Positions 9,644 to 55,056 of a stretch of 58,947 nucleotides of DNA are shown here, piece after piece (position 1 is the stretch's first letter; every line of letters begins with the position of its first letter). Source of the DNA: Patescibacteria group bacterium (GTDB lineage Bacteria > Patescibacteriota > Minisyncoccia > Phycocordibacterales > UBA9973); the NCBI GenBank assembly GCA_038061925.1, contig JBBTYD010000007.1:1-58947 (forward strand), in the 5' to 3' direction. The notes under the pieces are model-generated. The model saw nothing but the letters and a program-made list of their open reading frames with translations, was not told the DNA's origin and did no database searches. The position numbers were made by a program, and so were the translations under genes.

Positions 9644-11419
9644 TTATTTCTTTAAACGACTATTTTTAATTTCCTCTTTTTTTTTATTTATTTCATTTAT
9701 CTTTCTTAAAATTTCTACCTCCATTTTCTTGTCTTTAAGATTCTTGAGTTCGATCATTTTTTGAACAAGTTCTTCATTTAAATACTCTTCTTCAATATTT
9801 AGTAGCATTTCTTTTACATCTTTTTGTAAATTTTCACTATTTAAATAAAAAACCTCCGCTTCATAAATTAAATCTTCTTTAAGATCTTTATAAATCTCTT
9901 TCGCTTTACTTATTTTTGTAAAAATCAATTCCGGTTCTATAATCCTATTATGCATACTCTCCTGCCAAAAAGCTATCCCTAGAAGCCGGCGCTCAATTGG
10001 ATCTTTTCTCAATTTTTTCTCCACATTTTCCTTCGCAGTTTTGGTTTCTTCTGTTTCAGATTTCAACTCAGACTCGACTTTTTTTAAATCCTCCATTAAA
10101 GCTTTTTCCGTTATGCCAGATTGATCGCTAATTTTCTTAAGAAAGTACATTTTTTCAATTGAACTTTCAATCGCATCTATGTAAGGTAATATTTTTTCTT
10201 TTATCAGTCTGCCAGCGCGCCTAGTATCAGAACCCGCTTCTTTTAAAACTTTACCCAACATAAATTCTATTATATGTTTAGCATCTTTAATAGCCAGACG
10301 CCAGGCATCAGGACCATTTTTAGAAATCAAATCTGCTGGGTCAACTCCATCTGGCAGTGACACCACTTTCACATCCATACCCAAAGACAAGGCAATTTTA
10401 CCGGCTCTGTTTGAAGCATTAAACCCCGCCTTATCAGCATCAAACGAAAGGACGATATTGGACGAAAGACGACGCACAAGTCCCAAATTGGAAATTACAT
10501 TTTCCCTCAGCCGTAGCCCGTCTACGGGCGAGGCTTTAGAAACAGTTGAGTCAGACAAAGCCGTGCCGGAGGTGGCAATTGTATTTTTATATCCAGCTTG
10601 ATGTGATAAAATCAGATCCATCTGCCCTTCAACTAAAATAGAAAAATTATTTTTGCGAATTGACTCTTTGGCTTTATCGATGCCAAAAAGCACAGAAGAT
10701 TTATTAAATATCGGGGTTTCTGGACTATTTAAATATTTGGCAGACTTGCCGTCATCAGCCAGAATTCTGCCTGAAAAAGCAATAATCCGCCCGCTTGAAT
10801 CAGCTATGGGAAACATGATGCGTCCACGAAACCTGTCGTACATCGCTTTATTTGGTTTGTCCGTCTCGGGATCTGGTCTTTTGGCTAATCCCGCGCGCTC
10901 TATTTCGTTATCAGTAAAATTCTTAGATTTTAAATAATCGTATAGTTTGCGCCAGTCTAATATAGCCAAGCCAATTCTAAAATCTTTGACAGTCTCATCT
11001 AGGAGTCCACGAGATTTTAAATATTCTTGCGCTTGTTTATTATTCTTTAGATTGTTTTCAAAAAATTCCGTAGCTTCTTCCATCACCTTATAAAGTTTTT
11101 CTTTTTCACTTTCAGTCTCTTTTATTTCTTGACTGTAAACTTCAAGCCGGATTCCAGCCCTATCCGCTAAAAGTCTAAGCGCGCCCTTAAAATCAAGTCC
11201 TTCAAATTCTTCCACGAAAGTAAAAATATCCCCCGACGCTCCACAACCAAAGCAATAATAACTTCCTCGGTTGGGCGAGACAAAAAAGCTGGGCGTCTTT
11301 TCATTGTGAAATGGACACTTGCCTTTCCAGCTTGCTCCCGCTTTATCCAGCTTTATATAAGAGCTGACCAGCGAGATAATATCTATTCTTGATTTGATTT
11401 GATCAACAGATGAGGACAT
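9644..11419 (-). CDS. dnaG: DNA primase
   Basis: [11 protein letters not shown] zinc finger, [14 protein letters not shown] and FDAD Toprim motifs. Confidence 0.97.
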
Positions 11420-11444
11420 AAATACAATTTCTAATTGACCTAAT

Positions 11445-11479
11445 ATAATTTTATCAAGGAGAATCCTTGATAAAATTAT
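11445..11479. repeat. REP-like palindrome (16-bp arms) containing the rpoC stop codon
   Basis: ATAATTTTATCAAGGA-GAA-TCCTTGATAAAATTAT. Confidence 0.9.
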
Positions 11480-14400
11480 TTTTCCACTCCAGTTTTGATC
11501 TTTTTTTGAACCCCGTCCCAGCCGGGATCAATCGTCCAATAATAACATTCTCTTTTAGTCCTCTCAAATAATCTACTCCACCCTTGATGGCATTTTCAAT
11601 CAAAACACGATTGGTGTTTTGGAACGAGGCGGCCGAAAGCCAACTTTTGGTGCGAAGCGACACTTCTGTAATACCGAGCACGACTGTTTCCGCTTTTGAT
11701 TCTTTGGATTCTTTCAGCTGTCCAACTCTTATATTTTCTTCTATAAAGGCCGTATTTTCAACAATATCGCCAATAGAAAAATTGGTATTACCGGCATCTT
11801 TTATTTTTCGGCGCGAAAACATCTGACGAATAATTATTTCGGTATGCTTCCTGGAAATTGAAGCGCTCTGCAATTCATAAACTTTATTTATTTCTCGAAT
11901 TATATACTCTTCGACTAATTCTTTACTGCCAAATTTAAAGATTTCAGCAATATCCGCAGAACCATCAGTGATAATTTGACCCTTAAAAACTTTATCACCC
12001 ACCTTCATTGTTGGGATTCTGCGAAACGGCACAAGGTATTCTATTTCGTTTGGCTGGCCGTCAAGTTTTGTGTCAGATAGCACTTTAATAATTTTTTCCC
12101 CGCCTGTGTGGACAAGTTTTCCACCTGCCTGCGCAGGTAAGTCTTTGGCCACAATAGATATCACTTCTCCATCAGTTTGTGAAACAATTGCCGGATTTTT
12201 TGGAATTCTTCTTTCAAATATCTCTTCGACTCGCGGCAGCCCCGTAGTGATATCAGTACCAGCCACACCTCCAGCGTGAAAAGTACGGAGCGTAAGCTGG
12301 GTGCCTGGCTCACCAATAGCTTGAGCGGCAATGATGCCCACCGCCTCTCCTAAATCCACCAAATGATTACGCCCTAAATCAAGTCCGTAACACATCTGAC
12401 AAAGACCATGAACAGTGCGACAAGTTAATAGAGAGCGAACAAAAACTTCGTTAAAACCTGCCCCTTCAATGTTATAAGCTTCCTCTTTGGTAATCAAGAA
12501 ACCTCTTTTGAAAACTATCTTGCCATTTTTATCTTTAAGGTCTCCCGCCAGTACCCGTCCGCGAATATTTTTGGAAAGTGGAATTTCTATTCCAGAAATA
12601 TTTTCTCTGGTAACTATTTTCCCTTCTTTTGTACCGCAATCCTCTTCAGTTATAACCACATCCTGCGCAACGTCAACCAACCTTCGAGTTAAGTACCCAG
12701 CCTTAGCCGTGTTTAAGGCGGTATCGGAAGCGCCTTTGCGAGCGCCGTGAGTAATAACGAAATATTCAATTGGAGAAAGTCCCTCTTGGTAACAAGGAAT
12801 AATGGGAAATTCCAAAGTTTTACCTTGATTGTTTTGGATAAGTCCAATCATTCCTGTCATTTGCATCAATGACGACATTGTGCCACGGGCTTTAGAAGTG
12901 AACAAATCATAAGTGGAACTCTTTTTATCAAGTGTTTTGGGTAAAACTTTTTCCAAATTTTTCTTTGTATGTGTCCAAATTTCGATAATCTTTTGATATT
13001 TTTCTTCTTCCGACAAAAGACCCTCGCGCCATTGTGATATTATTTCTTCTTCAAGTTTTTTACCTTCCGCTATTATTTTTGGTTTCTCGGGCGACACCGA
13101 AACATTATCAAGCCCCCAGGTAGTACCAGAAACTGTCGAGTATTTAAAGCCAAATGCTTTAATTTCATCCAAGATAAGAGGAGTGTTGTCGACCCCAGAG
13201 TGTACGATAAGCTCATCTAGCAGAAAAGACAGTCTATCTTGGGTCATTTCATCATTCACGTAAGAAAAATCATTTGGCAAAATACTGTTAAAAAAAAGTT
13301 TCCCAACAGAAGTGTCAAAAATTCCTCCAGAAAATTTTTTGTATTTCTCTTTCTCTGTTGCCAGAACTTTTATTTTAGCGCGTAGAGATATAATCCCATA
13401 GTTATAAGCAGTAATAGCAGAATTGGGACTGGAAAAATATTTACCCTCTCCAACTTCACCGTCAACTGATTTTGTCATCCAATAACTTCCAAGCACCATA
13501 TCCATCCGAGGATGCACTATCGGATCGCCATTCTGAGGTTTTAGCAGGTTTTTGTTTGCAGCCATTAATTCTTTTGCTTCGGATTGAGCTTCTTCGAGCA
13601 ATGGAACATAAACGGCCATTTGGTCTCCATCAAAATCAGCATTGAAGGCTTGACAAACAAGCGGATGAACTTGAATAGCATTTCCCTCAATCAGAATAGG
13701 ATTAAAGGCTTGAATACCCAAACGATGTAGAGTGGGCGCGCGGTTTAAAAGAACATATTTCCCAGCGATAACTTCTTCCAACATCGTCCAAACGTCAGGA
13801 GTGCGTTCCTCTATAAGCTTATTCGCTCCACGAATATTAAAGGCTAATTCTGCTTGCAAAATTTTAGAAATTACGAATGGTCTAAAAAGCTCGAGCGCCA
13901 TGTGCTTAGGCAATCCACATTGATTGAGTTTGAGTTCGGGACCGACAACAATCACTGAACGTCCTGAATAGTCCACTCTTTTCCCAAGTAAATTTTGGCG
14001 AAAAAGACCTTGTTTGGATTTCAAATTATCGGATAGCGATTTTAAGGGACGCTTTTGGGATTGACTCATCGCCGCCGAGTCATTTTGCTTGGCAATCGAA
14101 TTATCAATCAGCGCGTCAACGGCTTCCTGAATAATTCTTTTTTCATTTCGTAATATCACATCTGGAGCATTAATTTCTTTTAATTTCTTCAAACGATTAT
14201 TCCTATTTATAACTCGACGATAGAGATCATTGAGGTCTGATGTCGCATGTCTGCCTCCATCCAGAGCCACCATCGGACGCAAGACGGGCGGAATAACTGG
14301 AATAACAGTCAAAAACATCCATTCCGGTCGAATCCCAGCGTAAGTCATAGCGCGAATAAGAGACAGTTTTTTTTGTAATTTCTCTTTTTCCGCCATGCTT

Positions 14401-15122
14401 GCTCCCGTTATCATCTTTTCAGTGTGAGCTTTTAATTTATTTAGATCCAAATTTTTAAAAATTGAGTAAATAGCTTCAGCGCCTATATTTGCTTCAAAAC
14501 AAGTTCCGTATTTTAAAGAGTAGTGATGAAAAGAAATTTCATTTAAAACTTTCCCTTCATAAATTTCTCCAATCTCTTTTTGAGTAATAGAAAACAGGTT
14601 TTTTAATTTCTCTCGAGTCTCGTCATCAGTCACATTTTTTAATTTTGCCTTGTATTCTTTGTCTAAATTTGCCACCACGGTTCCTTTTTCATCTTCATGA
14701 ACTTTAGTAATAATATATCCGGCAAAATATATCACCTTTTCAAGGTCAGAAACAGATATATTCAAGAGGATACTCATCCGAGAAGGTACTCCGCGTAAAA
14801 ACCAAATATGAGACACGGGAGTAGAAAGTTCGATATGCCCCATTCTCTCCCTTCTCACTATTGAGCGAGTAACTTCGACTCCGCATTTCTCACAAATAAT
14901 ATCTTTATAACGAATTCGGCGATATTTTCCGCAATAACATTCATAATCTTTTTCCGGTCCAAATATTTTTTCATCAAAAAGACCCCCGCGCTCGCTCCTT
15001 CCAGTACGATAATTTATTGTCTCCGGTTTGGTCACTTCTCCAAAAGACCACTCTTTTATCTGCTCCGGCGAAGCCAGCCGTAACGCGATCGAATCAAATT
15101 CAGTTGTGTTTAAAGTTTTCAT
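11454..15122 (-). CDS. rpoC: RNA polymerase beta' subunit
   Basis: [11 protein letters not shown] catalytic motif, N-terminal zinc finger, GEPGTQLT. Confidence 0.99.
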
Positions 15123-15123
15123 A

Positions 15124-18100
15124 TTATTTATCTTCGCTTTTTTTTAAATCAACATCCAGCGCCAGACCGCGCAAATAATTTAAGAGCACGTTAAAAGAGG
15201 CGGGAGAATTCGGTGGTCTGATTTTTTCATTTTTTATAATAGAATCAAACGTCGCCGATCGACCGAGTATATCATCAGACTTAATAGTAAGCATTTCACG
15301 CAACGTATAAGCCGCGCCATAACCTTCTAATGCCCAGACTTCCATTTCTCCAAATCTCTGCCCTCCGCCTTGAGCTTTTCCGCCAAGAGGCTGTTGGGTA
15401 ATAAGCGAATATGGTCCGATTGAACGCATGTGAATCTTGTCCTCCACCATATGGTGAAGCTTTAACATATACATATAACCGACGGCAATATCTTGCTCGA
15501 AAGCTTCTCCAGTGCGTCCATCAAAAAGTTTTAATTTCCCATTTCCTGGTAATCCCGCTTTGATTAATTCTTGACTGATTTCTTCGTGTTTGGCTCCTAA
15601 AAATGGCGGAACAATAGCTTGATAACCAAGACTATTGGCGGCCATACCAAGATGCATTTCTAAAATTTGTCCCAAGTTCATACGAGAAGGAACACCAAGT
15701 GGCGAAAGTATAATATCAACCGGCGTGCCATCCGCCATGTAAGGCATATCTTCTTCTGGTAGAATGGTTGAAATAACTCCTTTGTTTCCATGTCGTCCAG
15801 AAAGCTTATCTCCAACTGAAATATTTCTAATTTGCGCGACTTCAATTACGATTTTTTTAATAATTCCCGCTTCAAGTGTATGTCCCAAATCACGAGAAAA
15901 AATCTTGACACCAATAATGCGCCCACGCTTACCATGCTCCACTCGCAACGATGTGTCCTTAACATCACGCGCTTTCTCAGCAAAAATTGAACGTAGCAGT
16001 CGCTCTTCTGGGGTAAGTTCAGTTTCACCTTTAGGGGTGATTTTACCGACTAAAATATCATTTTCTCTAACTTCCGCCCCGATGCGAATAATTCCATCTT
16101 CATCTAAATCTTTAAGTTTGAGTTCTCCGACATTTGGTATATCCCGAGTGGTAATTTCAGGTCCAAGCTTGGTATCACGAACGACGCATATAAACTCCTC
16201 TACATAAATAGATGTAAATTTACTCGCTTTTACTAGACGCTCAGATACAATTATAGCATCCTCATAAGTTGATCCAGACCAAGATAAAAATGCTACAAAA
16301 ATATTTTGTCCCAGTGAAATCTGCCCACCGACAGTACTGCTGGTATCTGCCAAAATATCGCCTTTCTTTATTTTATCACCAACATTCACAAGTGGACGCT
16401 GATGAAATACGGCAAAGTTGTTATTTCTCATAAAATTAACAAGATTGTAAATCTTCTCGGAATTTTTTTCAGACTTTTCTTTAACGATTATTTTTTTTGC
16501 ATCTAAATAAGAAACAACGCCGTCTTCTTCAGCTATAATTAATCTGCCTGAATCTCGTGATGCTAGTTCTTCTGTTCCAGTGGCAACAAGAGGCGCTTCA
16601 GGGAGAACGCAAGGTACAGCTTGCTTTTGCATATTAGATCCCATTAAGGCTCTATTCGCATTATTATGTTCCAAAAACGGAATCATAGAAGTTGCTATAG
16701 AAAAAGCTTGGTTTGGAGAAACATCAATAAAATCAACTTCCTCACGGGAAATTGCGCCCGGCTCTGTCTTAATTCTGGCTTCTACTTTTTCTTCTGTTAT
16801 TTTCCCATTCTCGTCATAAGGAATTCCAGCATGCGCAATATTATATTTTTCTTCCTCCAGCGCATTCAAATAAACCACTTCGTTGGTTAGCTTGCCATTT
16901 TTTACTTTGATATATGGAGTTTCAATAATTCCAAATTCATTTATTTTTGCATACGTGGCAAGATGCAAAATAAGTCCAATATTGGGACCCTCGGGAGTAT
17001 GAATAGGACAAACTCTACCATAGTGCGAAGGATGCACATCCCGAACTTCCAAACCCGCACGCTCACGCGTGAGACCTCCGGGTCCAAGCGCAGAGAGTGT
17101 GCGTAAATGTTCTATCTCGTAAAGCACATTTTCTTGCGCCATAAATTGCGAGAGTTGGTTTGTAGTGAAAAATTCTTTTATCCGAGCTTGGAGTGGCCGT
17201 TGGTTTATAATAGTGATAGGCATTGCGGTATCAACGTCAATAATAGACATTCTGTCTTGAATATTTCTTTTGATTTGCATCATACCGGTACGCACTTTTT
17301 GTTGAAGTATCTCGCCAACAAATCGCACTCGCCTCTGACCCAAATGATCTATGTCGTCACTTTTAGCGTCGGGAGTATTGTTTAAACTAATAATATGTGA
17401 AATTACAGTCACTAAATCCTCTTTGGAAATAGTTCGGCGAGCGAGCGCTTCTGTATTCATTGGTTTAAGAAAACGCTGATTAAATCTAAAACGACCAACT
17501 GGAGAAAGATCATACCGCTCTGTTGTAAACAAAGAGTTAATGAACTCTTTGGCATTATCAGCCGTGGCCATGTCGCCATCTCGGAGACGCTTGTAGATTT
17601 CAATATACGAATCATTTACGCTCTTGTCTTCATCTTTAGAGAGACATATTTTTATCGTTTCTTCTAGTCCCGCCACTCCACCGCCTGGAGTAGAAAAAGC
17701 TTTTAAGATTGCTTCATCATTTTCATAACCCATGGCTCGCAAGAGAGCAGTGGCGGGGAATTTTCTCTTTTTGTCTATCCTGATGTAAATTGCGCCATCC
17801 GCTTCTGACTCTATCTCAATCCAAACTCCGCGCGCGGGAATAATCTTAGCGCCAAAATATCTTTTGCCCTTACTTTCAGATTCAGTAAAGAAAACTCCAA
17901 AACTTCGCGCAAGTTGTGGCACGATAACCCGCTCTACGCCATTTATAATAAAAGTCCCGTGAGAAGTCATTAAGGGAAATTCAGACATAAAAATCTCTTG
18001 TTCCTTTATCGTGCCTAAAATTTTATTGGTTAATTTTACCCGAGCTTTCAAAAACCCTTGGTATGAGAGTTTATTTATTTTAGCGTTATTCTCATCGTAT

Positions 18101-18315
18101 TTACATTCAGAGAGTGAAAAAGAAACAAATTCAAGTTGAAACTTTTTTGTAGAATAATCACTGATCGGAGAAAATTCCTTGAATACTTCGCCAATCCCCG
18201 CTTCGACCAACCATTTGAAACTCTTTACTTGAGCTTCAATTAAATTTGGAAACTCGACGAGAGGTTTTTTATACCTTGAAAAATATTTCTTCGGACGCTT
18301 AGCTATTGTATGCAT
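15124..18315 (-). CDS. rpoB: RNA polymerase beta subunit
   Basis: GDKLSGRHGNKG, GGQRFGEMEVWAL, RALMGSNM. ATG at 18315 preferred over TTG 18360. Confidence 0.99.
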   Translation of the reverse strand: MHTIAKRPKKYFSRYKKPLVEFPNLIEAQVKSFKWLVEAGIGEVFKEFSPISDYSTKKFQLEFVSFSLSECKYDENNAKINKLSYQGFLKARVKLTNKILGTIKEQEIFMSEFPLMTSHGTFIINGVERVIVPQLARSFGVFFTESESKGKRYFGAKIIPARGVWIEIESEADGAIYIRIDKKRKFPATALLRAMGYENDEAILKAFSTPGGGVAGLEETIKICLSKDEDKSVNDSYIEIYKRLRDGDMATADNAKEFINSLFTTERYDLSPVGRFRFNQRFLKPMNTEALARRTISKEDLVTVISHIISLNNTPDAKSDDIDHLGQRRVRFVGEILQQKVRTGMMQIKRNIQDRMSIIDVDTAMPITIINQRPLQARIKEFFTTNQLSQFMAQENVLYEIEHLRTLSALGPGGLTRERAGLEVRDVHPSHYGRVCPIHTPEGPNIGLILHLATYAKINEFGIIETPYIKVKNGKLTNEVVYLNALEEEKYNIAHAGIPYDENGKITEEKVEARIKTEPGAISREEVDFIDVSPNQAFSIATSMIPFLEHNNANRALMGSNMQKQAVPCVLPEAPLVATGTEELASRDSGRLIIAEEDGVVSYLDAKKIIVKEKSEKNSEKIYNLVNFMRNNNFAVFHQRPLVNVGDKIKKGDILADTSSTVGGQISLGQNIFVAFLSWSGSTYEDAIIVSERLVKASKFTSIYVEEFICVVRDTKLGPEITTRDIPNVGELKLKDLDEDGIIRIGAEVRENDILVGKITPKGETELTPEERLLRSIFAEKARDVKDTSLRVEHGKRGRIIGVKIFSRDLGHTLEAGIIKKIVIEVAQIRNISVGDKLSGRHGNKGVISTILPEEDMPYMADGTPVDIILSPLGVPSRMNLGQILEMHLGMAANSLGYQAIVPPFLGAKHEEISQELIKAGLPGNGKLKLFDGRTGEAFEQDIAVGYMYMLKLHHMVEDKIHMRSIGPYSLITQQPLGGKAQGGGQRFGEMEVWALEGYGAAYTLREMLTIKSDDILGRSATFDSIIKNEKIRPPNSPASFNVLLNYLRGLALDVDLKKSEDK

Positions 18316-18544
18316 ATTTTTTACAACCAAAATAAAACAAAAAAAACGAAAGAAAAACAAAGAGAAAAATTCTTTTCTTTAGCTTCTTAAAAATTTATTT
18401 ATAGTTATGATTAAGCTAAAAACCTTGTAATCCAAACCAAGATTGCATCCGATACTCAATCAATGAATCTCAAGTAGCCTACTCTATTCCACTTTTTTTG
18501 TCAAATACCAGTTGGGGATTATTTTATGATGAGTAAAGACTTTC

Positions 18545-18739: not shown

Positions 18740-18761
18740 TCATCTAGGCCTTGCCTAGCTG
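18740..18761. repeat. Left REP-like repeat of the RAYT unit
   Basis: TCATCTAGGCCTTGCCTAGCTG; exact reverse complement of 19442-19463. Confidence 0.93.
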
Positions 18762-19417
18762 AGAGTGTTATAACTAAGCCATTCAAAAATTTCAGCTAAA
18801 AAAGATTTTTTATTCGGAAAATATTTTGGAAATGTTTTTATATTTAATATTTTATTTTGGGTTCTTTGTATCCCTATATAATCTAAATAACTCGAATAGG
18901 GATAATCATTTAAATATTCTACAACTTCTTTTTTATTTTTAATCCCACTTTCTTTCCAATCCTTCTGTATAAGTTTTACTGGATTTAAATGAATATAAGA
19001 AAACATATATTTAAGATATTGATCTATGTTTATATGTTGTGATTTAAATTTTCCTTCAAACAATGATCCAGTTCTTTTATACTTTTTATTAAAATACATT
19101 GAATAAGAAGTACTAAATTTCTGTATAAAATTACTTATATTATTATCTTCAGATTGAGTGATTAATAAATGAAAATGATTAGGCATTAAACAATACGCTC
19201 CAATATTAACTAGGGGTTCTTCACGCTCAATATCATATAAAGTTTGACCTTTATTTAAATTATTAACTTTTAAGTTTCCCTTTTGATTACAGGCATACAA
19301 AAGACCAATAAAACGCAAATAATCTTCTTTATCAAGAAAAATTTTTTGTTTACTATTTCCACGATTATATATATGATAATATTCTCCAGAAACTAATTTT
19401 ACTTTTCGTATTGACAT
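18755..19417 (-). mobile_element. rayT: REP-associated tyrosine transposase (RAYT, HUH Y1 family)
   Basis: YYHIYNRG, AYCLMPNHFHLL (HUH), YIHLNPV (catalytic Tyr), YSSY; flanked by inverted REP-like repeats. Start at ATG 19417. Confidence 0.9.
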
Positions 19418-19441
19418 AGATATATAATACAAAATACTTTC

Positions 19442-19463
19442 CAGCTAGGCAAGGCCTAGATGA
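19442..19463. repeat. Right REP-like repeat of the RAYT unit; contains the trmD stop
   Basis: CAGCTAGGCAAGGCCTAGATGA. Confidence 0.93.
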
Positions 19464-20146
19464 GTTTTTTTCCACTCTTCTATTTTCTTATGATTTCCAG
19501 AAAGCAGAACTTTGGGAACTTTGTAGTTTTTACCCTTCCATTTTAAAACTTCGGGACGAGTGTAGACTTCACTACTGGAGATTCGTTCTTCTTCCAATGA
19601 TTTATATTTACCCAAAACTCCCGGAATTTGTCTGGAAATAGAATCTATTAAAACCATCGCTGGAAGCTCTCCACCAGTTAGCACATAATCCCCGATTGAA
19701 ATTTCTTCCACCTTTGTTAAAGCTCCGACGGACAGGTTTGCATTTATAATTTTCTTAACTCGCGCATCTAGACCTTCGTATCTCCCAGAAATTAAAATAA
19801 TATCTGTATATTTTTTGGCAACGACTTTAGCGTAAGCTGTATCAAACTTTTTACCTGAAGGAGAAAATAAAATCATCTTGGTTTTGTTTTTACTTTTGCT
19901 CTTCACTGCGTTCAGGACCTTCGCCACAGCTTTCAGCAGTGGCTCGGCTTTCATCACCATCCCAGGCCCTCCACCATAAGGCTTGTCATCTACCGGTTTA
20001 TAATTATTTTTGGGCGCTTTTATAAAGTCCCGTGGATTATAAAATTTTATTGAAATAAGTTCATTTTTTATCGCCCGCCCAATAATAGATTCTTTTAAAT
20101 AAGAATCGAACATTTCTGGAAAAATTGTAATTATATGAAAACGCAT
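19445..20146 (-). CDS. trmD: tRNA (guanine-N1)-methyltransferase
   Basis: DDKPYGGGPGMVM, GRYEG, SIGDYVLTGGELPAMV. Confidence 0.97.
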   Translation of the reverse strand: MRFHIITIFPEMFDSYLKESIIGRAIKNELISIKFYNPRDFIKAPKNNYKPVDDKPYGGGPGMVMKAEPLLKAVAKVLNAVKSKSKNKTKMILFSPSGKKFDTAYAKVVAKKYTDIILISGRYEGLDARVKKIINANLSVGALTKVEEISIGDYVLTGGELPAMVLIDSISRQIPGVLGKYKSLEEERISSSEVYTRPEVLKWKGKNYKVPKVLLSGNHKKIEEWKKTHLGLA

Positions 20147-21417: not shown

Positions 21418-23442
21418 GTGAAAAACAAAACAAACAAACTGGAAGGTATTATATCTATTTCCTCAAAAGGCACAGGTTATGTTGCAATCGGAGGGAGAAA
21501 AAACAAGCAAAATAATCAGGATCCAGAAATTAATTTCAAACATTTAAATACGGCAATGCATGGAGACTTCGTAGAGATAATCCTCCATCCAAAAATTAAA
21601 AACAGGCTTTTCTCCGCTCGAGACTCCGGCGAAGCAAGGCAAACGGCCGAAGTATCTAAAATAATCACTCGCGCTAAAATTCGCTTTGCCGGAGTGTTAG
21701 AAAAAGAAAATAACTTATTTTTCTTAAAGCCAGATGACACCAAGATGTACACGGATATTTTAATACCGGAAGAAGTATTAAACGGAGCCTTGGCTGGACA
21801 AAAAGTTTTTGGAGAAATAACTTCTTGGCTAGATGCGCGCAAAGCACCAGAAGGAAAAGTGATTAAAATTTTAGGACATCCAGGAGACAATAATACAGAG
21901 ATGCGCGCCATCGCAATGGAAAAAGGCTTTGATTCAGAACTGCCTAAAAAAGTTTACGAAGAAGCGGAAAAAATAAAGCGTGATGGTATAAAAGAAAGTG
22001 ATTATAGGGGACGCAGGGATTTTAGAAAAACTTTAACCTTTACCATTGACCCAAGTGATGCAAAAGATTTTGATGATGCAATTTCTTTCCGTGAAATAAA
22101 TAAAAACCCCTCAGCTCCGCTCGGGGCAAGCGAATATGAGGTTGGCATACATATTGCAGATGTTTCACATTATGTAAAAGTCGGCAACGCGCTTGATGAA
22201 GAAGCACAAGAGCGTGGAACTTCGGTGTATTTAGTAGATAGAACAATACCGATGTTGCCGGAAATATTATCAAACGATTTATGTAGTTTAGTGCCAAATA
22301 AAGATAGACTCACAATGAGCGCAGTTTTCGTTATAGATAAAAATGCCAAAGTAAAAAGTGAGTGGTTTGGACGTACGGTCATTCATTCCCAAAAAAGATT
22401 CACTTACGAGGAAGCAGAAGAATCAATAAAAAAAGCTAATGCTCCTCTGCACAAAGAGCTATCAATTTTAAATAATTTAGCAAAGCTTTTCACAGTTGAA
22501 AGATTTAAAAATGGTGCAATATCACTAGAGCAAGAAGAGGTAAAATTTGTGCTAAATAAAAACGGAGTACCGCTAAAAATAATAAAAAAAGAACGCGGTG
22601 ACTCAAATAGATTGATTGAAGAATTTATGCTTCTAGCCAACAAAAAAGTGGCCAAAATCCTGTCTCCTAAAAATATCAAAGGCCGAAAAGATGAAAGCAT
22701 ATCTTTGTATCGTATCCACGATCTTCCAAGCAAAGAAAAGATGGCTGACCTGGCATTCTTCCTACGAAGTTTGGGGCATAAAATATCCTTAGTGAATGGA
22801 ATAATCCCCAGTTATGAAATAAATAATCTTTTAAAAAAATTAGAAGAGAAAAATGAAAAAGAAACAACCAAAGATACTGTAAGCCGAGCAGTAGTGAGAT
22901 CAATGGCCAAAGCAATTTATTCCACTAAAAACATCGGACACTACGGTTTAGCTTTTGAATACTATACCCATTTCACTTCCCCGATCAGAAGGTATCCGGA
23001 TATTATTGTGCACAGATTGCTCCAAAACTACCTCTCGAACAAAAAAGTAAATAAAGATAAAATCTTAGAATATGAAAAAATTGCCAGAACTTCATCTGAA
23101 CAAGAAAAACGCGCCTCGGATGCTGAACGAGCTTCTATAAAATATAAACAAGCGGAATATATGTCCAAACATTTAGGAGAAAGCTTTGATGGAATCATAA
23201 GTGGCATAACAGAATGGGGTATTTATGTGGAAGAAATAGAAACAAAATGTGAAGGCCTGGTGAAAGTTCGAGACATGAATGACGATTTTTACGTTTTTAA
23301 CGAAAAGAAACTGGAATTAGTTGGACAAAAAAATCTACCTGCGCAGGCAGGGAAAAAGAAATATCGTTTAGGCGACCGCCTTAAAATAAAAGTAAAAGGA
23401 GTTGATCTGGAACGAAAAACGATAGATTATAGTCTAATTTAA
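21418..23442 (+). CDS. rnr: Ribonuclease R (RNB family)
   Basis: TIDPSDAKDFDDA, HIADVS, HFTSPIRRYPD, C-terminal S1 domain; GTG start with TGCTATATT 6 nt upstream. Confidence 0.95.
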   Translation: MKNKTNKLEGIISISSKGTGYVAIGGRKNKQNNQDPEINFKHLNTAMHGDFVEIILHPKIKNRLFSARDSGEARQTAEVSKIITRAKIRFAGVLEKENNLFFLKPDDTKMYTDILIPEEVLNGALAGQKVFGEITSWLDARKAPEGKVIKILGHPGDNNTEMRAIAMEKGFDSELPKKVYEEAEKIKRDGIKESDYRGRRDFRKTLTFTIDPSDAKDFDDAISFREINKNPSAPLGASEYEVGIHIADVSHYVKVGNALDEEAQERGTSVYLVDRTIPMLPEILSNDLCSLVPNKDRLTMSAVFVIDKNAKVKSEWFGRTVIHSQKRFTYEEAEESIKKANAPLHKELSILNNLAKLFTVERFKNGAISLEQEEVKFVLNKNGVPLKIIKKERGDSNRLIEEFMLLANKKVAKILSPKNIKGRKDESISLYRIHDLPSKEKMADLAFFLRSLGHKISLVNGIIPSYEINNLLKKLEEKNEKETTKDTVSRAVVRSMAKAIYSTKNIGHYGLAFEYYTHFTSPIRRYPDIIVHRLLQNYLSNKKVNKDKILEYEKIARTSSEQEKRASDAERASIKYKQAEYMSKHLGESFDGIISGITEWGIYVEEIETKCEGLVKVRDMNDDFYVFNEKKLELVGQKNLPAQAGKKKYRLGDRLKIKVKGVDLERKTIDYSLI

Positions 23443-35447: not shown

Positions 35448-35461
35448 ATCAAAATCGAAAA

Positions 35462-40321: not shown

Positions 40322-40336
40322 TTAGGCAAGGCCTAG
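40322..40336. repeat. Copy of the RAYT-flanking REP
   Basis: TTAGGCAAGGCCTAG upstream of tRNA-Ser. Confidence 0.8.
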
Positions 40337-40390
40337 CGTAATAATTTACTCCTTTCTTTTTGCAGAAAATAATGTAAATTAAGAGATATT

Positions 40391-41227: not shown

Positions 41228-41246
41228 ATCAAGGAGTATCCTTGAT
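41228..41246. repeat. REP-like palindrome containing the pyrG stop, with a tandem partial copy
   Basis: ATCAAGGA-GTA-TCCTTGAT; TTTACATCAAGGAG duplicated at 41209 and 41223. Confidence 0.85.
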
Positions 41247-42923
41247 ATTTTTACATCTTAGAACGCAAGCTTCCAGGAAAGCGATGAAAAGAGGATGTGG
41301 ATGGAGCGGTCTGGACTTCAGTTCGGGATGAAATTGAGTACCCAAGAAAAAGGGATGCTTGGTTTGCGAAAGTTCGGCAATTTCCATTAATCGAAAATCC
41401 GGCGAAGTACCAGAAAATATTAAACCAGTTTTCTCCAGTTTTTCTATGTATTCTGGATTAACTTCATAGCGATGACGATGACGTTCAGAAATTTGTTTTT
41501 TTCCATCCTCCTTCGCTAAAGCTCCAGCGGACAAGTAAGCGGCGTTCGCGATGCTCCTTTCTTTCAGAATTGCCGGATAAGCTCCTAAACGCATCGTCGC
41601 GCCGAAATTCTTTTCTTTCAGATTCTTTTTTTGTTCGAGCATAATATCAACAACCGGATAAGAAGTTTTGGGATTTATTTCAGTTGTGTTTGCGTCTTTC
41701 ATTAAAGCCACGTTTCGCGCAAATTCGATAACCGCGAGTTGCATACCATAGCATAAACCGAAATAAGGAATTTTTTTCTCTCGACAGTATTTAATAACAG
41801 AAATTTTACCTTCTATGCCTCGGCTGCCAAAACCACCGGGCACAATTATACCGTCGAATTTGTTTAATTCTTTTAAAGATTTTGGGTCCTTTTCAAATTG
41901 TTCCGAATTTAGCCAAATAATCTCGGGAACGCAACCTACCTTGCCTCCCGCATGTTTTATCGCTTCAATCACGGAAATATAAGAATCTTCAAGCACAAAC
42001 TCGCCCGTACCAAAATACTTGCCAACAATTCCAACCCGAACCGATCTGGTTGCGCTATTCATCTTGAGAACCATCTCTCGCCATTCTTTCATATCTCGTT
42101 TCCCCGACAACATTCTAAGTTTCTTCAAGATACGATCACCCAACCCGTCATTTTCGAAATTAACTGGCACCTGATAGATATTCTCCACGTTCGGCGCCGA
42201 GATAACATCTCCTTTTTCTAAACTGCACATAAATTCAATTTTTTCCTTTCGTTTTTCGTCCATCGGAATATGCGCGCGCGCGAGGATAATGTCTGGATTC
42301 AGCCCAACTGCGTTTAAGCTACGAACTGCGTGTTGGGTAGGTTTGGTTTTAAGTTCATTTCCACCGGCGCCGAGCGCGGGCACGTAACTCACCAACACTA
42401 AAACAACATCACGAGGATTTTTAATCTTGAGCATACGCACTGCCTCGAGAAATAAAATATTTTCATATTCGCCAACCGTACCGCCGATTTCCGTGATTGC
42501 AACTTTCGCATGAGCTTTGACTACTGCCTTATTGATACGTTCGATAATCTCGAGTGGAATACGTGGCACCACTTCCACTTGTTTGCCACCAAATTCCAAA
42601 TTGCGTTCTTTCTGAATCACGGAAAGATAAACACTGCCTGTCGTCATATAATTCGTTCGAGTAAGATCACGATCCAGAAAACGTTCATAATTACCCATAT
42701 CCTGATCACACTCTGTGCCATCATCTAAAACAAAAACCTCACCGTGTTCGGTGGGGCTCATAGTGCCCGCGTCAACATTCACATACGGATCTATTTTGAG
42801 AGCCGTAACTTCGATTCCTCGAGACTGAAGAATCTTGCCGATTGAAGCGGAAGCGACCCCCTTTCCAACTCCCGACATAACTCCCCCCACTACGAAAATA
42901 TATTTTGTTTGTTTGGCTGGCAT
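41229..42923 (-). CDS. pyrG: CTP synthase
   Basis: GGVMSGVGKG, KIDPYVNVDAGTMSP, GLCYGMQ, TQFHPE. Confidence 0.98.
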   Translation of the reverse strand: MPAKQTKYIFVVGGVMSGVGKGVASASIGKILQSRGIEVTALKIDPYVNVDAGTMSPTEHGEVFVLDDGTECDQDMGNYERFLDRDLTRTNYMTTGSVYLSVIQKERNLEFGGKQVEVVPRIPLEIIERINKAVVKAHAKVAITEIGGTVGEYENILFLEAVRMLKIKNPRDVVLVLVSYVPALGAGGNELKTKPTQHAVRSLNAVGLNPDIILARAHIPMDEKRKEKIEFMCSLEKGDVISAPNVENIYQVPVNFENDGLGDRILKKLRMLSGKRDMKEWREMVLKMNSATRSVRVGIVGKYFGTGEFVLEDSYISVIEAIKHAGGKVGCVPEIIWLNSEQFEKDPKSLKELNKFDGIIVPGGFGSRGIEGKISVIKYCREKKIPYFGLCYGMQLAVIEFARNVALMKDANTTEINPKTSYPVVDIMLEQKKNLKEKNFGATMRLGAYPAILKERSIANAAYLSAGALAKEDGKKQISERHRHRYEVNPEYIEKLEKTGLIFSGTSPDFRLMEIAELSQTKHPFFLGTQFHPELKSRPLHPHPLFIAFLEACVLRCKNIKDTP

Positions 42924-42928
42924 TCTTA

Positions 42929-43846
42929 TTACTTATTTAAATACTTTCTAATGGCGAAAAAACTGGAAATCACCCCCAAGATTATACCTGACAATAAAAT
43001 AATGGCAAAAATTTGAAAGAAATTTGAAATATAATAATTATAGAGATTAAGTCCCAGGAAACCAGTCATATTACGTCCAAACCAGGCTGTCGCTGGCCAG
43101 AAAAGAAGGAGGGTCACGATGGTAGAGATAATTCCATAAATTGCGCCCTCAACCATAAAAGGTCCCCGAACCCGCATTTTACTTGCTCCTACCAATCGCA
43201 TTACTCCAATTTCTTCTTTCGAAATAAAAATAGTCAATCGAATAGTGTTGAAGGTGATAAAGATAGAAGAAATTATGAAATAAAGCGTGAGAAGAAAACC
43301 AAACTTCTGCGCGCCGGATATTATGGTATTCAATCGGTCTATCACTAATTTATTATTGTAATAATTTGAGTGATTTACAATATCAGACGAACCTAAAACA
43401 AGCGCGTTGTCAGATTTCAAAAAGTTTGCGATACTTTCATATTGAGAAACTTCTTTAGTTTTAACATTCAAAACAGCGCCGAGTGGATTATCCCCTATTT
43501 CATCCAATGCGGCAATCGTTGGATAATCGTTCTGGTGACGATCACGAAAAAGTTTAAGCGCTTCGGAAGCGCTGGTATAGGAAACATTGGCCACTTCCGG
43601 CAATTTCAAAAGAGAATCTTTTAAAAGCGCAATTCGCGCTTCGGAGGCGCCCACGTTAAAATAAATCGTCACGTCTACTTTATCTTTTATGACATTAAGA
43701 GAAGAATAGAGTACTGCTTGTAAAAGAATAATCGTGACAATCACAGCTAAAGTATTCACTACTTGCAGGACTGCGGCGAAAGAAACTAAACCACTCCGAG
43801 TAAAATTTGTAAATCCTGCTTTTGTAATTCTTTTTAATTCAGTCAT
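42929..43846 (-). CDS. ftsX: Cell division permease FtsX
   Basis: Four-TM topology, NTIRLTI..SKEEIGVMRLVGAS, PFMVEG; downstream of ftsE. Confidence 0.92.
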   Translation of the reverse strand: MTELKRITKAGFTNFTRSGLVSFAAVLQVVNTLAVIVTIILLQAVLYSSLNVIKDKVDVTIYFNVGASEARIALLKDSLLKLPEVANVSYTSASEALKLFRDRHQNDYPTIAALDEIGDNPLGAVLNVKTKEVSQYESIANFLKSDNALVLGSSDIVNHSNYYNNKLVIDRLNTIISGAQKFGFLLTLYFIISSIFITFNTIRLTIFISKEEIGVMRLVGASKMRVRGPFMVEGAIYGIISTIVTLLLFWPATAWFGRNMTGFLGLNLYNYYISNFFQIFAIILLSGIILGVISSFFAIRKYLNK

Positions 43847-45777: not shown

Positions 45778-45995
45778 ACGACGGCGACTCGGACGCCAAG
45801 AACAAGTGCTCTTGTTCTTGCGCTCCTCGCTTGTCGTAATAAAAATAAAAACAAGTGAGCGTGGAATAATCCGATGGCTCACTTGTGTGTGAATGATGCG
45901 TTCTACTGCACCATCCACACACAAGTGGGAGTGCAAAAAAAACGCGAATGCAAGGGCAAAGGGCAAAGTGTCAAAAAGACCACAGTGCCCAATGC
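45778..45995 (-). ncRNA. Candidate structured RNA or DNA hairpin array downstream of the GC-rich gene
   Basis: Stems CAAGAACAAG/CTTGTTCTTG (45797-45820), ACAAGTGAGC/GCTCACTTGT (45851-45886) and CACTTGTGTGTG/CACACACAAGTG (45880-45927). Confidence 0.45.
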
Positions 45996-46003
45996 CAGAG
46001 TGC

Positions 46004-46594
46004 CTACTTGCCGAAGCGGAGTGCGGGGAGGCTGGAGTACCAGTGGCCGTCCAGCCAGAACCAAACCAACCCAACCTTGTCGCCGTTGTCGTAGAGATAC
46101 GGGACAAGCAGGTGGCCGTTGCGGTCCTGCACGACCGAGCCCCACAGGAACACCGCCTTGCCCGCGAACAGCTTGCGGAACACGGCGATACCCTTCTGCT
46201 GAATGGCGAGCCCATCCTGCAAGTTCAGGCAGGTGGCGAGGTTGTCGCCCTTCTGCAAGTGCTTGTAGATGGTGTTGCCGACGACGGACCCACGCTTCTG
46301 GTCATCGTGGAGCCACTGGTCAACCTTTGTGAGGTCGTATTCAGCGGGTCCCGCGAGTTCCAACTCGGGATGCTCCAACTTCTTGAACCAGTCGGGGTAG
46401 GTCGGCTTGACGGACCTGTCCACGCGAACGAGGAAGTCCAGCACGGGTTCGGGCGGGAATTTGAGTTTCGGTTGTGGAATGAGGATCAGCTCGCCTCACA
46501 GGAACTGGGTGGCTCCCTCAAGTCCTCCTAGTTTGTTGAAGACAGCTTCCATCATCCCCAAATCCAGCGAAGCGTATTTCATCGTCGTGTTCAT
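46004..46594 (-). pseudogene. GC-rich gene resembling a CPR DGR target protein; in-frame TGA at codon 33 (46496-46498)
   Basis: MNTTMKYASLDLGMMEAVFNKLGGLEGATQFL*GELILIP...VLDFLVRVDRS... is in frame with the ORF-track 46004-46444 piece; aromatic, VR-like C-terminus. Confidence 0.7.
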
Positions 46595-46605
46595 TGTGTC
46601 TTTCT

Positions 46606-46752
46606 CCGACCATTGGTCGGCATTGTTTCTCCGCCTACTAGACGGAGAGCCGTGTAATCACGGCAGGTTGTTGTTTGATGCTAGAGGACGACCACAGTGG
46701 TAGTCATAGCCAGAAAATACCAAGTAAATTGGGACCTTTTGGCTATGACTAC
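46606..46752 (-). ncRNA. Candidate structured 5' leader
   Basis: Four hairpins: CCGACC/GGTCGG, TCTCCG/CGGAGA, GCCGTG/CACGGC and a 13-bp GTAGTCATAGCCA/TGGCTATGACTAC stem. Confidence 0.45.
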
Positions 46753-46794
46753 TGCTTTTGCAAGTAGTTTATCAAGGAACATTTTACGGGCTAT

Positions 46795-46824
46795 ATTATA
46801 CTATACTTTACGGATATTTGTCAA
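46795..46824 (-). promoter_or_regulatory. Consensus sigma70 promoter for the GC-rich cassette
   Basis: TTGACA-18 nt-TATAAT. Confidence 0.75.
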
Positions 46825-49456: not shown

Positions 49457-49743
49457 AATATCTTTTTTACTTTCAAAAATCCGTCTTGCGTGTCTGGAAA
49501 TTGTCCAAGAATTAGCTCTTTTGAAAATTCACGCGATTCTATTTTATCTTCACGCCAAACATTTATGAGATTATTGTATTCATTTTTCTCATCTGCTAAT
49601 TGGCGGATAGGCATTTTAACCTTCTCAATCTGCTTCACATACTCCAAGATACCTTTCATATCCGAAAGTATTTCTTTTTTTTCGTCCCCGCTAAGCTCAA
49701 TTCGCGCAAGCTCTGCAAGGTTTTCAACATCTTCAATATCCAT
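49453..49743 (-). CDS. gatC: Asp/Glu-tRNA amidotransferase subunit C
   Basis: DVENLAELARI, NVWRED, FLKVKKIL; ATG 49743 has TGTTATAAT 6 nt upstream. Confidence 0.92.
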   Translation of the reverse strand: MDIEDVENLAELARIELSGDEKKEILSDMKGILEYVKQIEKVKMPIRQLADEKNEYNNLINVWREDKIESREFSKELILGQFPDTQDGFLKVKKIL

Positions 49744-49846
49744 CAAGAGATTATAACAAAAAATAAGAAAAAATAAAACTTAACAAAATACTCTAAAAAA
49801 TTTTATCCCCATATACGCTATAGCGTATATGGAAATATCTGATATT

Positions 49847-50737: not shown

Positions 50738-51289
50738 TTAGAACTTAACTTTCACCGGATTCTGAGCCACATCATTGTCCGCCAAATCAAAGAATTCTTT
50801 CTTAGAAAAATTGAATATCCCAGCTAAAATGTTTGAAGGGAAAGATTCAATTTTTATATTCAAGTCGCGAACATTCCCATTATAAAACCTGCGCGCCGCT
50901 TGAATTTTATTTTCTGTGTCCGAAAGTTCATTTTGTAAAGCTAAAAAATTTGTGTTGGCTTTAAGATCTGGATAGGCTTCGGCAATAGCAAAAATGGACT
51001 TGAGCGCTCCCGTAAGCATATTTTCGGCTTGTCCCTTATCCGCTAAATTACCCCCCGCCCCCATAGCCAGAGATCGCGCCTTGGTCACATTCTCAAACGC
51101 GCTAGATTCATGCGTAGCATATCCCTTCACGGTATTCACTAAATTGGGAATTAAATCATATCGACGTTTTAACTGGACCTCAATATCCGCCCAAGCTTCC
51201 CCTGCACGGTTCTTGAGAGAAACAAGACCATTAAACACAAAAATTACCCATAAAACCACCACTCCTAAAACTATGAATGTGTAAATCAT
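50738..51289 (-). CDS. lemA: LemA family protein
   Basis: LKRRYDLIPNLV, EAYPDLKAN.NFL.LQ, ARRFYN. Confidence 0.95.
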   Translation of the reverse strand: MIYTFIVLGVVVLWVIFVFNGLVSLKNRAGEAWADIEVQLKRRYDLIPNLVNTVKGYATHESSAFENVTKARSLAMGAGGNLADKGQAENMLTGALKSIFAIAEAYPDLKANTNFLALQNELSDTENKIQAARRFYNGNVRDLNIKIESFPSNILAGIFNFSKKEFFDLADNDVAQNPVKVKF

Positions 51290-51323
51290 ATCTTGATTAT
51301 ATCACAAAAAACAAAAAAGCAAG

Positions 51324-52217: not shown

Positions 52218-52224
52218 ATTATTT

Positions 52225-53610: not shown

Positions 53611-53655
53611 AAAGATACAAATATACTATACATTTTTAAAAAAATAAGCAAATTC

Positions 53656-53674
53656 AGCTAGGCCTTGCCTAGCT
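53656..53674. repeat. Copy of the RAYT-flanking REP containing the PAP2 gene stop
   Basis: AGCTAGGCCTTGCCTAGCT. Confidence 0.88.
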
Positions 53675-54166
53675 AGTTTTAACAAAATATCTTACAAGAT
53701 AAACTATAAAAGCACCTAATACAAACCCACCCAATATATCAATCGGAAAATGGATTCCAACGATAATGCGCGCCAGACCGATTAAGAGAGCAAAAAAAAT
53801 AAAAATATAGCCAATTTTTTTATCCAGAAAGAAAAGTGATACAGCCAAGGCCGAAAAAAGTGTTGCGTGCCCAGAAGGAAAAGCATACCCGATTTCCAGA
53901 AAAAGCGGATGAACATTGGCGAGCGTTAAAAATGGTCGTGAAGCATGAATTAAATATTTCAACAATAAATCAATAAACACAGCCAGACCTCCGGAAAAAA
54001 ATACCAGAAATAATTCTCGCCAATTTTTACGACAGAAAAGTAAAAATAATCCCGCCATTAAAATCACTAAATAGGGAAAATAAACAGCTAAAAAAACAAC
54101 TACTTTATCAAAAAATTGTGAGTGATGCGCTAAATTATAAAAGAAGTAAAAAATTGTTTCGTTCAT
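53669..54166 (-). CDS. PAP2-family phosphatase (undecaprenyl-PP phosphatase-like)
   Basis: K...ASRP, FPSGHA, ARIIVGIHFPIDILGG. Confidence 0.88.
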   Translation of the reverse strand: MNETIFYFFYNLAHHSQFFDKVVVFLAVYFPYLVILMAGLFLLFCRKNWRELFLVFFSGGLAVFIDLLLKYLIHASRPFLTLANVHPLFLEIGYAFPSGHATLFSALAVSLFFLDKKIGYIFIFFALLIGLARIIVGIHFPIDILGGFVLGAFIVYLVRYFVKTS

Positions 54167-55056
54167 ATATTTGATTTAGCAAAATCATCCCGAGCTTTGT
54201 TGAGGGACTTCGCCACTTTTAATACATTATTAAAAAGCATCGCGACGGTTACTGGCCCAACTCCTCCAGGAACGGGAGAGACGAAACCAGCCACGTTTTT
54301 TACAGATTCCAAATCAACGTCACCAACTATATTTTTCCGATTATCTAAAGAACTATTTTTTTCCTCTGAAGTACCCGCGTCTATTAAAACTGCCCCTGAC
54401 TTAATTATATTGCCGGTAATATATTTTCCCTTTCCCATACCTGAAATCACAACATCCGCTCGTTGTAAAAGATATTCCTTATTTTCCGTCTTGCTTGTAA
54501 TCGTAAGATAAGTCAAGCCTCGATAACGCAAAAGCGCCGCGGTTGGTTTGCCCACCAATTCTCCTTGTCCTAAAACAACTATAATCTTCCCTTTAAAATC
54601 TAAATTGAGAGAATCAAGAAGCGCCATACAGGCAAGCGCTGTAGGATATCCTAAATCTGTTTGACTATCATAGTTATTATAAAATTTCTCACTGGCTACG
54701 AGCCCTAAACAATCAACATCCAAACGCGGATCGATGCTTTCAAGTATCGCTCTTTTATCAATTGATCCCGGCAATGGAAGCTGGACAATAATTCCGCACA
54801 TATTCTCTATTTTATTTAAAACCTTTATTTCTTTTATTAAATCATTTGTTGATATGGAGGCTGGGAAAGTTGCTTTGTGAAAATGAATACCCATTATTTC
54901 GGCAGTTTTTGCTTTCATCTCCACATACTGGAGAGATGCGGGATCATCACCCACCAGCACATCGCAAAAAATTGGCGTAAAAGAAAGAGCGGCAACTTCT
55001 TTTTTTACTTTAGATAATATTTCCCCGCGTATTTTTTTTCCGTCAATTATTTGCAT
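54163..55056 (-). CDS. folD: Methylene-THF dehydrogenase/cyclohydrolase
   Basis: GIIVQLPLP, LIDAGTS, VGDVD, SPVPGGVGPVTVAML. Confidence 0.93.
   Translation of the reverse strand: MQIIDGKKIRGEILSKVKKEVAALSFTPIFCDVLVGDDPASLQYVEMKAKTAEIMGIHFHKATFPASISTNDLIKEIKVLNKIENMCGIIVQLPLPGSIDKRAILESIDPRLDVDCLGLVASEKFYNNYDSQTDLGYPTALACMALLDSLNLDFKGKIIVVLGQGELVGKPTAALLRYRGLTYLTITSKTENKEYLLQRADVVISGMGKGKYITGNIIKSGAVLIDAGTSEEKNSSLDNRKNIVGDVDLESVKNVAGFVSPVPGGVGPVTVAMLFNNVLKVAKSLNKARDDFAKSNI

Follow-up and report, generated by a model that had tools for sequence, protein, structure and literature searches.

The 58,947-nt stretch of DNA analysed here (hereafter the window) comes from an ultra-small groundwater bacterium of Candidatus Nomurabacteria (Patescibacteria, or candidate phyla radiation, CPR) and is packed with housekeeping genes, many of which hold short GC-rich segments, some of them palindromic, inserted in frame into the coding sequence. 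Its GC content is about 36% overall and varies from 29 to 45% per 2 kb. The housekeeping genes include dnaG (9644-11419), rpoC (11454-15122), rpoB (15124-18360), trmD (19445-20146), rnr (21418-23442), a smc-like gene on the reverse strand (25316-27586), thrS and gyrB ahead of pheT (33552-35522), a UvrD/PD-(D/E)XK helicase gene listed between pheT and pyrG (41229-42923), and gatA/gatC and secDF listed between pyrG and folD (54163-55056). Seven tRNA genes and one 5S rRNA gene are also present, together with a gene for a transposase resembling the repetitive extragenic palindrome (REP)-associated tyrosine transposases (RAYTs). A preliminary description of the window, made from the sequence alone, had named these genes correctly.

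Relatives were collected from three sources: a scan with RNase R, restricted to one genome per species, which yielded 80 loci of 60-78% identity, nearly all titled Candidatus Nomurabacteria, Paceibacterota or Patescibacteria; 80 metagenome loci found through pyrG; and database homologs of PheT, FolD and GatC. The orthologs of 15 genes were taken from the 80 syntenic loci, and the alignments comprised 16 to 81 relatives per gene, with just 5 for dnaG. An insert was called where residues of the window occupy alignment columns that few relatives occupy. Family counts refer to the window and 160 related loci (2.37 Mb). Segments were folded as single-stranded DNA and are reported with a z-score against dinucleotide shuffles. 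The window also agrees, with 0-1 differences, with Logan contigs assembled independently from four runs of groundwater metagenomes.

In-frame insertions and hairpins

The preliminary description proposed in-frame insertions at 14 sites, and alignment with relatives confirmed 12 of them as lineage-specific in-frame insertions of 12-81 nt; the confirmed internal sites lie in dnaG, rpoC, rpoB, trmD, rnr (three), smc, pheT (two) and pyrG. The inserts are richer in GC (43-73%) than their host genes (35-43%), and the same holds for 314 rare inserts from the 15 genes of the window and 80 relatives, whose mean is 50% against 39% in the genes that carry them. Nearly all the large housekeeping genes examined hold at least one such element, and the density is about one insert per 2-3 kb of examined essential genes; some AT-rich small indels occur too. 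In what follows, the three rnr inserts are read on the forward strand and all the others on the reverse strand.

About seven inserts are real hairpins, and the palindromic nature attributed to all segments stands for those of smc, rnr site 3, dnaG and rpoB and for both of those in pheT. The smc insert (AEALLTP*GGSKASAT, 26066-26113) is a 48-nt hairpin with a fold z-score of -11.3. The first pheT insert (DLVVGVPLGTPTTK, 34436-34477), all 42 nt of which form a perfect palindrome (z -9.3), occupies a hotspot that holds NLPAQAGG in one relative (P0002); the second (KEHGYFSAEKFLVLAPSRFQ..., about 33885-33965) is a double hairpin (z -3.6) in a hypervariable linker that relatives fill with different repeat families. 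A local fold-back as origin of the 42-nt palindrome was rejected, its arm not matching the empty-site sequence of relatives. At rnr site 3, the insert LPAQAG (23335-23352) contains the palindrome CCTGCGCAGG(CAGG) (z -3.2), and nucleotide-level comparison with locus L028 identifies it as a clean 18-nt insertion without target-site duplication. The 30-nt dnaG insert (10505-10534) lies in the Toprim domain, has 73% GC, forms an imperfect hairpin (z -2.2) and is missing from four of the five aligned relatives. In rpoB, the insert TPGGGV (17674-17691) is the hairpin ACTCCA-GGCGG-TGGAGT (z -2.0), and its site is a hotspot with other GC-rich inserts in 7 relatives in an alignment of 50 RpoB sequences. 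The rpoC insert, which had been placed at 12124-12139, is genuine but extends in reality from 12105 to 12140; it is composite, with the palindrome CCTGCGCAGGCAGG followed by a small hairpin (GTGGA...TCCAC), and is a rare insert sitting at a hotspot.

The inserts of trmD (NANLSVGALT, 19715-19744, fold z +0.5) and pyrG (LSAGALAKED, 41505-41534, in the GATase domain) are both 30 nt long and form no hairpin; the window is alone in having them among 59 TrmD sequences and, at the codon level, among 81 pyrG sequences, the pyrG insert cleanly separating a Tyr codon from a Gly codon. Neither its junctions nor those of rnr site 3, which are clean as well, show a target-site duplication. The insert of rnr site 1 (IKNRLFSARDSGEAR, 21595-21639), GC-rich and without hairpin, is likewise specific to the window among 78 sequences and stands in place of the GKGR of relatives, and that of rnr site 2 (NPSAPLGAS, 22105-22131) has 70% GC and marks a hotspot. 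Finally, the segment reported inside folD (54188-54207) belongs to a C-terminal tail (SLNKARDDFAKSNI, 54166-54207) common to about one third of the aligned relatives, and is not an internal insert.

Four other candidates were discarded. The gatC segment (49591-49608), which had been presented as a repeat, has 44% GC and a minimum free energy of 0, matches none of the families and is part of a linker whose length varies. The hairpins encoding SASEAL in ftsX (43557-43573) and RETMSRA in smc are native sequence, and a 12-mer common to rnr site 1 and the N-terminus of rpoC is a chance match, the rpoC copy being the conserved RLASPEQ motif.

Perfect GC-rich hairpins number 10 in the window against 1.75 in shuffles, and 362 against 46 in the 2.37 Mb, an eight-fold excess; 187 of these 362 fall inside open reading frames (ORFs) of at least 120 codons. 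Peptides encoded by intragenic hairpins consist mainly of Gly, Leu, Ala, Arg, Pro and Ser. Two further palindromes were observed in the window: a GC-rich hairpin (ATGGCGG-TATGCTTC-CCGCCAT, 5914-5935) within a family-2 glycosyltransferase gene (5025-6269), and a perfect 24-nt AT-rich palindrome (CCATATACGCTATAGCGTATATGG, 49809-49832) between gatC and a M48 peptidase gene, which looks more like an operator than a REP.

Families, hotspots and position in the protein

The recurrence of several families in unrelated genes, already proposed from the window alone, is supported by clustering of 235 inserts by DNA similarity, which gave families spanning two to four genes and many genomes. An exact 16-mer is common to rpoC and rnr (23336-23351) of the window in the same reading frame, and its core CCTGCGCAGG has 5 copies in the 2.37 Mb, all located in long ORFs (rpoC, rnr, thrS) and all in the LPAQAG frame; since the two other frames read CLRRQ and PACAGR, this strict choice of frame is best explained by selection. 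The dnaG-type family (GCCTCGCCCGTAG...CTACGGC.GAGG) is also found in rnr, rpoB and a nusB-like gene of relatives, a FLNGLAGVGAPENRGPE type is shared by rnr and pheT, PARNASHSDAGG occurs in rpoB and in rpoC of a single genome, and a double hairpin encoding SRRPSGSGSR constitutes a further family. The trmD and pyrG inserts share 29-mers that are 79% identical (by eye) in the same frame. Both inserts, and the beginning of the folD tail with them, can be aligned to inserts of relatives, internal or C-terminal, whose other strand encodes PFGKAQGK or LRQAQDKF (consensus CCTTCGNTAAAGCTC.GGACAAG). From these alignments, we consider a trmD/pyrG/folD-type superfamily as probable but not proven.

The same positions are occupied repeatedly and by different sequences. 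At rnr site 2, inserts of at least six unrelated families are present in 36 of the 78 relatives and, on a tree built without the insert columns, a minimum of 22 changes is needed to explain presence/absence, and 34 to explain family identity; sister pairs with good support differ from each other. Three different families also occupy rnr site 3, at positions that coincide to within one codon. Three non-sister lineages share the 45-nt SRRPSG element at about 90% identity (by eye), while the flanks of its carriers (25 codons on each side) are 73-76% identical, a level that does not exceed that of the entire gene and that argues against whole-allele transfer. Homologous-recombination transfer of alleles was rejected for shared inserts on this ground, the flanks of carriers being no closer than the rest of the gene. 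This pattern rather favours recent independent arrival of the element, or else its concerted evolution.

In an AlphaFold2 model of RNase R (60-sequence alignment, mean predicted local distance difference test score, pLDDT, of 74), each of the three inserts falls within coil that separates two beta strands, in agreement with the surface-loop placement initially proposed. Site 1 corresponds to coil residues 57-75 between strands 51-56 and 76-84, with pLDDT below 50 at residues 62-71; site 2 to coil residues 227-238 between strands 221-226 and 239-247; and site 3 to coil residues 637-647 between strands 633-636 and 648-650.

The RAYT gene and its hairpins

The gene at 18755-19432 (reverse strand) encodes a 225-aa RAYT-like Y1 (HUH) tyrosine transposase, so that the resident RAYT of the preliminary description is real. 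It matches Pfam Y1_Tnp (E 3.2e-9) and, as best NCBIfam match, REP_Tyr_transpos (E 2.8e-14, 53 bits, below the 80-bit equivalog cutoff), and it contains an HFH motif (in PNHFHLLI) and YIHLNPV. Its homologs in the databases include several that their sources call RayT or REP-associated tyrosine transposase, and all homologs among the 120 matches listed are at least 67% identical.

This gene is bracketed by its own hairpin. One copy (CAGCTAGGCAAGGCCTAGAT on the gene strand, 18743-18762, z -3.0) is directly 3' of the gene and holds its stop codon, and the other (ATCTAGGCCTTGCCTAGCTG, 19443-19462) lies upstream, the two 20-nt REPs being exact reverse complements. The upstream copy encodes the last five codons and the stop of TrmD (HLGLA*), an arrangement which recurs in loci L050 and L052. 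The RAYT's REP (GCTAGGCCTTGCCTAGC) has 5 copies in the 59 kb; an intergenic one is found at 40322-40338 (TTAGGCAAGGCCTAGC) and another at 53656-53674 (AGCTAGGCCTTGCCTAGCT), between secD and a PAP2 gene whose stop codon it overlaps. A variant (TCCATAGGCCTTGCCTATGGA, 57172-57192) stands beside the 5S rRNA gene. Both feet of this REP carry CTAG and not GTAG/CGTC, whereas the dnaG-type family does hold GTAG/CTAC. Ten RAYT homologs were found in the fetched loci, most of them visibly bracketed by their own lineage-specific hairpin, as is that of P0454; a close homolog elsewhere has nearly the REP of the window in a different genomic neighbourhood. The ORF at 7814-8374 was also considered as a RAYT and rejected, since it encodes a wHTH and PaaX_M (Cas2-like) protein; it is flanked by two 36-nt near-palindromes (7770-7805 and 8407-8442).

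A direct connection between a RAYT and an intragenic insert is provided by smc. The REP that brackets the RAYT of locus L084 is CGGAAGCCTTGCTTCCG, and both arms of the 48-nt smc hairpin of the window are inverted copies of it, as in smc of L028; at least one intragenic element is thus a REP doublet (REP doublet forming hairpin, or REPIN, in the published sense) of a family linked to a RAYT. In the window, an in-frame TAG (26090-26092) in the loop of this hairpin splits smc, which is otherwise a single reading frame, into ORFs 26090-27586 and 25316-25987 (498 and 223 aa). L028 has the same insert with PPAGG where the window has TP*GG, and its gene is intact. The same CGGAAGCCTTGCTTCCG is found inside pyrG of L084 (2506) and L083 (2420) with no change in protein length, these loci reading LKNGSLASVAY where the window reads LKERSIANAAY; judging from this comparison, it looks as if native codons had been overwritten and not interrupted.

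The Logan contigs of the four runs all stop at 22059-22088, just upstream of the insert of rnr site 2, and at 26073-26099, within the smc hairpin, so that the assemblies seem to be interrupted by these elements or close to them. As a source of population polymorphism these contigs were set aside, carrying no information on presence or absence. One 3-nt variant that they include, at position 26089 within the smc hairpin loop, is not assignable to this organism because the depth there is inflated by the repeat.

Carriage by phages received no support from IMG/VR matches, which are mostly of high GC and in mixed frames. The 18-nt palindrome CCTGCCTGCGCAGGCAGG is present in 25 IMG/VR contigs, of which 23 have 42-67% GC and mixed reading frames; the high-GC viral contigs carry the LPAQAG palindrome in all three frames and, among low-GC contigs, just two have the LPAQAG reading. 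No IMG/VR contig contains the smc REP, and one contains the RAYT REP.

Other features of the window are mentioned briefly. An HNH endonuclease ORF (192-611) lies between a tRNA-Thr gene (1-74) and a 32-nt copy of the 3' part of the tRNA (617-648, 81% identical to 1-32), which points to a tRNA gene as the insertion site of a small endonuclease cassette (1-653). Downstream of the 5S region, on the reverse strand, a group I intron model gives two sub-threshold matches (57768-58020, 32.9 bits, and 58639-58826, 24.2 bits), probably the intron of the preliminary description and presumably within the 3' part of a 23S rRNA gene; the first match contains a hairpin (57903-57920). Between tRNA genes, a region of about 1 kb (45778-46824; GC about 45% per 2 kb) stands out by its much higher GC and shows many GC islands and no Pfam matches.

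Origin of the inserts and relation to known systems

We propose, with a probability of roughly 0.6, that the GC-rich segments are selfish elements resembling REPs and REPINs, which RAYTs probably move and which selection confines to the loops of proteins. Several families of such elements, consisting of single or double hairpins of 12-50 nt and of decayed or half copies, would spread within and between Nomurabacteria genomes and land anywhere in them. They would most likely be carried by a Y1 (HUH) transposase of the RAYT type, which would work in trans on hairpins of single-stranded DNA and, as is the case for Y1/HUH enzymes, leave no target-site duplication. Purifying selection would then purge copies that disrupt the reading frame or the folded core of a protein, and the survivors in essential genes would be those with a length multiple of three and no stop codon, located at surface loops, linkers or termini and read in a loop-friendly frame giving peptides rich in Gly, Ala, Pro, Ser, Leu and Arg. 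Occupied sites could be hit again or have their insert swapped, which would generate hotspots and composite inserts, and the copies that persist would decay to non-palindromic GC-rich remnants. We infer both that RAYTs move the intragenic families and that selection, more than targeting, explains the sites.

Several observations weigh against this proposal. Five of the segments that had been called palindromic (trmD, pyrG, folD and rnr sites 1 and 2) have fold scores in the range of shuffled sequences, and the four clean junctions (left flanks TAC, AAT, ATA and AAA) share no target motif. The REP of the window's own RAYT (CTAGGCCTTGCCTAG) carries TAG stops and is found only in intergenic DNA or at gene ends. 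As to the suggestion that the inserts were spread by a RAYT, the identity of the smc arms with the REP of the L084 RAYT speaks for it, but only this one intragenic family is tied to a RAYT-flanking REP, and no cognate RAYT for the LPAQAG, dnaG, pheT and trmD/pyrG families was found in the window and fetched loci. Moreover, targeting would explain the reuse of the same codon-level sites by different families no less well than selection alone does. We tentatively consider, as a less probable extension, that Patescibacteria might host a very active population of ultrashort REPIN-like elements which, instead of landing at random, home to particular sites at the codon level, their targets being pre-existing hairpins or A-tracts in loop-coding DNA. 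If so, the same loop of RNase R, PheT, RpoB or RpoC would be refilled independently by different families in sister species, RAYT-driven elements would be the main source of length variation and of lineage-specific loops in CPR core proteins, and they could at times split genes, as with smc here.

The main rival explanation, which we regard as rather improbable, is a spread without transposase, in which GC-rich hairpins extruded at replication forks would lead to template switching or short-patch gene conversion. A hairpin would thereby be copied to another locus or take the place of a different one at a site already filled, the RAYT genes being bystanders found in the same hairpin-rich surroundings. 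This route would account for the lack of target-site duplication and of a conserved target motif, for the swapping of different families at the same codon in hotspots, and for composite and nested inserts; the REP in the native-length pyrG of L084 and L083, which looks as if it had been converted, favours this route, and no cognate RAYT is known for most intragenic families. Conversion nevertheless requires flanking homology, and the unrelated genes concerned have none, while the flanks of shared inserts are no closer than the rest of the gene; besides, most of the RAYTs found are visibly bracketed by a cognate hairpin, and one such hairpin is the intragenic element of smc.

Less likely still is the idea that the inserts are useful, whether through structures in the mRNA (ribosome pausing at domain boundaries, control by RNase III or RNase R), by serving as signals in DNA or by extending protein loops adaptively. 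The refilling of the same sites in many lineages, the single reading frame kept by the LPAQAG family and the higher conservation of an insert than of its flanks (about 90% by eye against about 73%) could be understood in this way, but at each site most relatives have no insert, sister species do not agree on whether a given site is filled or by which family, unrelated sequences fill the same site, disordered coil is what the structure prediction gives, and one copy splits smc by its stop codon. An origin by chance or artefact (GC-rich codons in variable loops, alignment noise or assembly errors) is true of the discarded gatC segment, ftsX SASEAL hairpin, RLASPEQ 12-mer and smc RETMSRA hairpin, and the existence of AT-rich small indels goes in the same direction. 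For the inserts as a whole it is largely refuted and very improbable, in view of the exact 16-mer, the perfect 42- and 48-nt palindromes, the eight-fold excess of hairpins over shuffles, the presence of the same elements in independent assemblies from many studies and the agreement of the Logan contigs with the window.

The proteins of CPR/Patescibacteria are known for unusual insertions confined to single lineages, and mobile DNA is considered scarce in their genomes. If the inserts are selfish elements moved by RAYTs, much of the length variation of core enzymes (RNA polymerase, primase, RNase R, phenylalanyl-tRNA synthetase, CTP synthase, TrmD, SMC) would be due to tiny selfish hairpins whose turnover outpaces the divergence of species; at least one family is common to intragenic inserts and RAYT-bracketing hairpins. 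The hairpins would constitute, after Rickettsia, a second and independent natural system in which to follow how proteins accommodate randomly inserted peptides, and they offer a concrete RAYT-REP pair amenable to biochemical testing. The breaking of contigs at hairpins also calls for caution in the annotation of CPR genomes, in their assembly and in alignments of phylogenetic markers.

A full-text literature search found no report of in-frame palindromic repeats or of RAYT/REP systems in CPR/Patescibacteria. In other bacteria, REPs have been described inside genes of several species, together with REP/RAYT systems (REPtrons) and the cleavage of REPs by RAYTs (Di Nocera et al. 2013, PMC3733652), and different REPs occupy about the same recB site in two Xanthomonas species (PMC3733652). 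The elements described here are like those of REPtrons in being GC-rich hairpins of 20-40 nt, single or in inverted doublets, and in the presence of a Y1/HUH transposase gene within inverted cognate hairpins, with lineage-specific REP-RAYT pairs. They differ from known REPtrons in their host, which has a reduced low-GC Patescibacteria genome, in the location of about half of the perfect hairpins inside ORFs, in units as short as 12-18 nt, and in that most intragenic families are without a demonstrated RAYT partner. The tag of the window REP is CTAG, unlike the GTAG or CGTC that marks two REP superfamilies, though not all REPs (PMC3733652).

Rickettsia palindromic elements (RPEs; Ogata et al. 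2000, 2002) are the classic case of in-frame repeats, about 100-150 bp long and with no known transposase (PMC10969869, PMC3733652). In their features, the present inserts resemble them as palindromic repeats of several families, inserted in frame in unrelated housekeeping genes of a small AT-rich genome and translated as extra peptides compatible with the fold (here in the RNase R model). Whereas RPEs form the families RPE-1 to RPE-10 and have a conserved peptide, the elements here measure 12-50 nt and the inserts 12-81 nt, and RAYT genes with cognate hairpins are common.

With the palindrome-associated transposable elements (PATEs) derived from IS200/IS605, the inserts have in common that they are gene-less hairpin elements without target-site duplication and linked to the same superfamily (Y1_Tnp), but neither the distinct left and right subterminal hairpins of PATEs nor their insertion 3' of a fixed tetra- or pentanucleotide was seen at the four clean junctions. 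They are also unlike miniature inverted-repeat transposable elements, having no target-site duplication and consisting entirely of a hairpin, without a sequence between terminal inverted repeats. The GC clusters of yeast mitochondrial DNA are short GC-rich palindromic mobile sequences of a very AT-rich genome that are sometimes in frame in a protein gene (var1), but those are organellar and eukaryotic, with another sequence and presumably another mechanism. Elements of this kind are therefore already known as intragenic REPs and RPEs, and what is notable here is their density, the tiny size of their units and the direct link between a REP and a RAYT.

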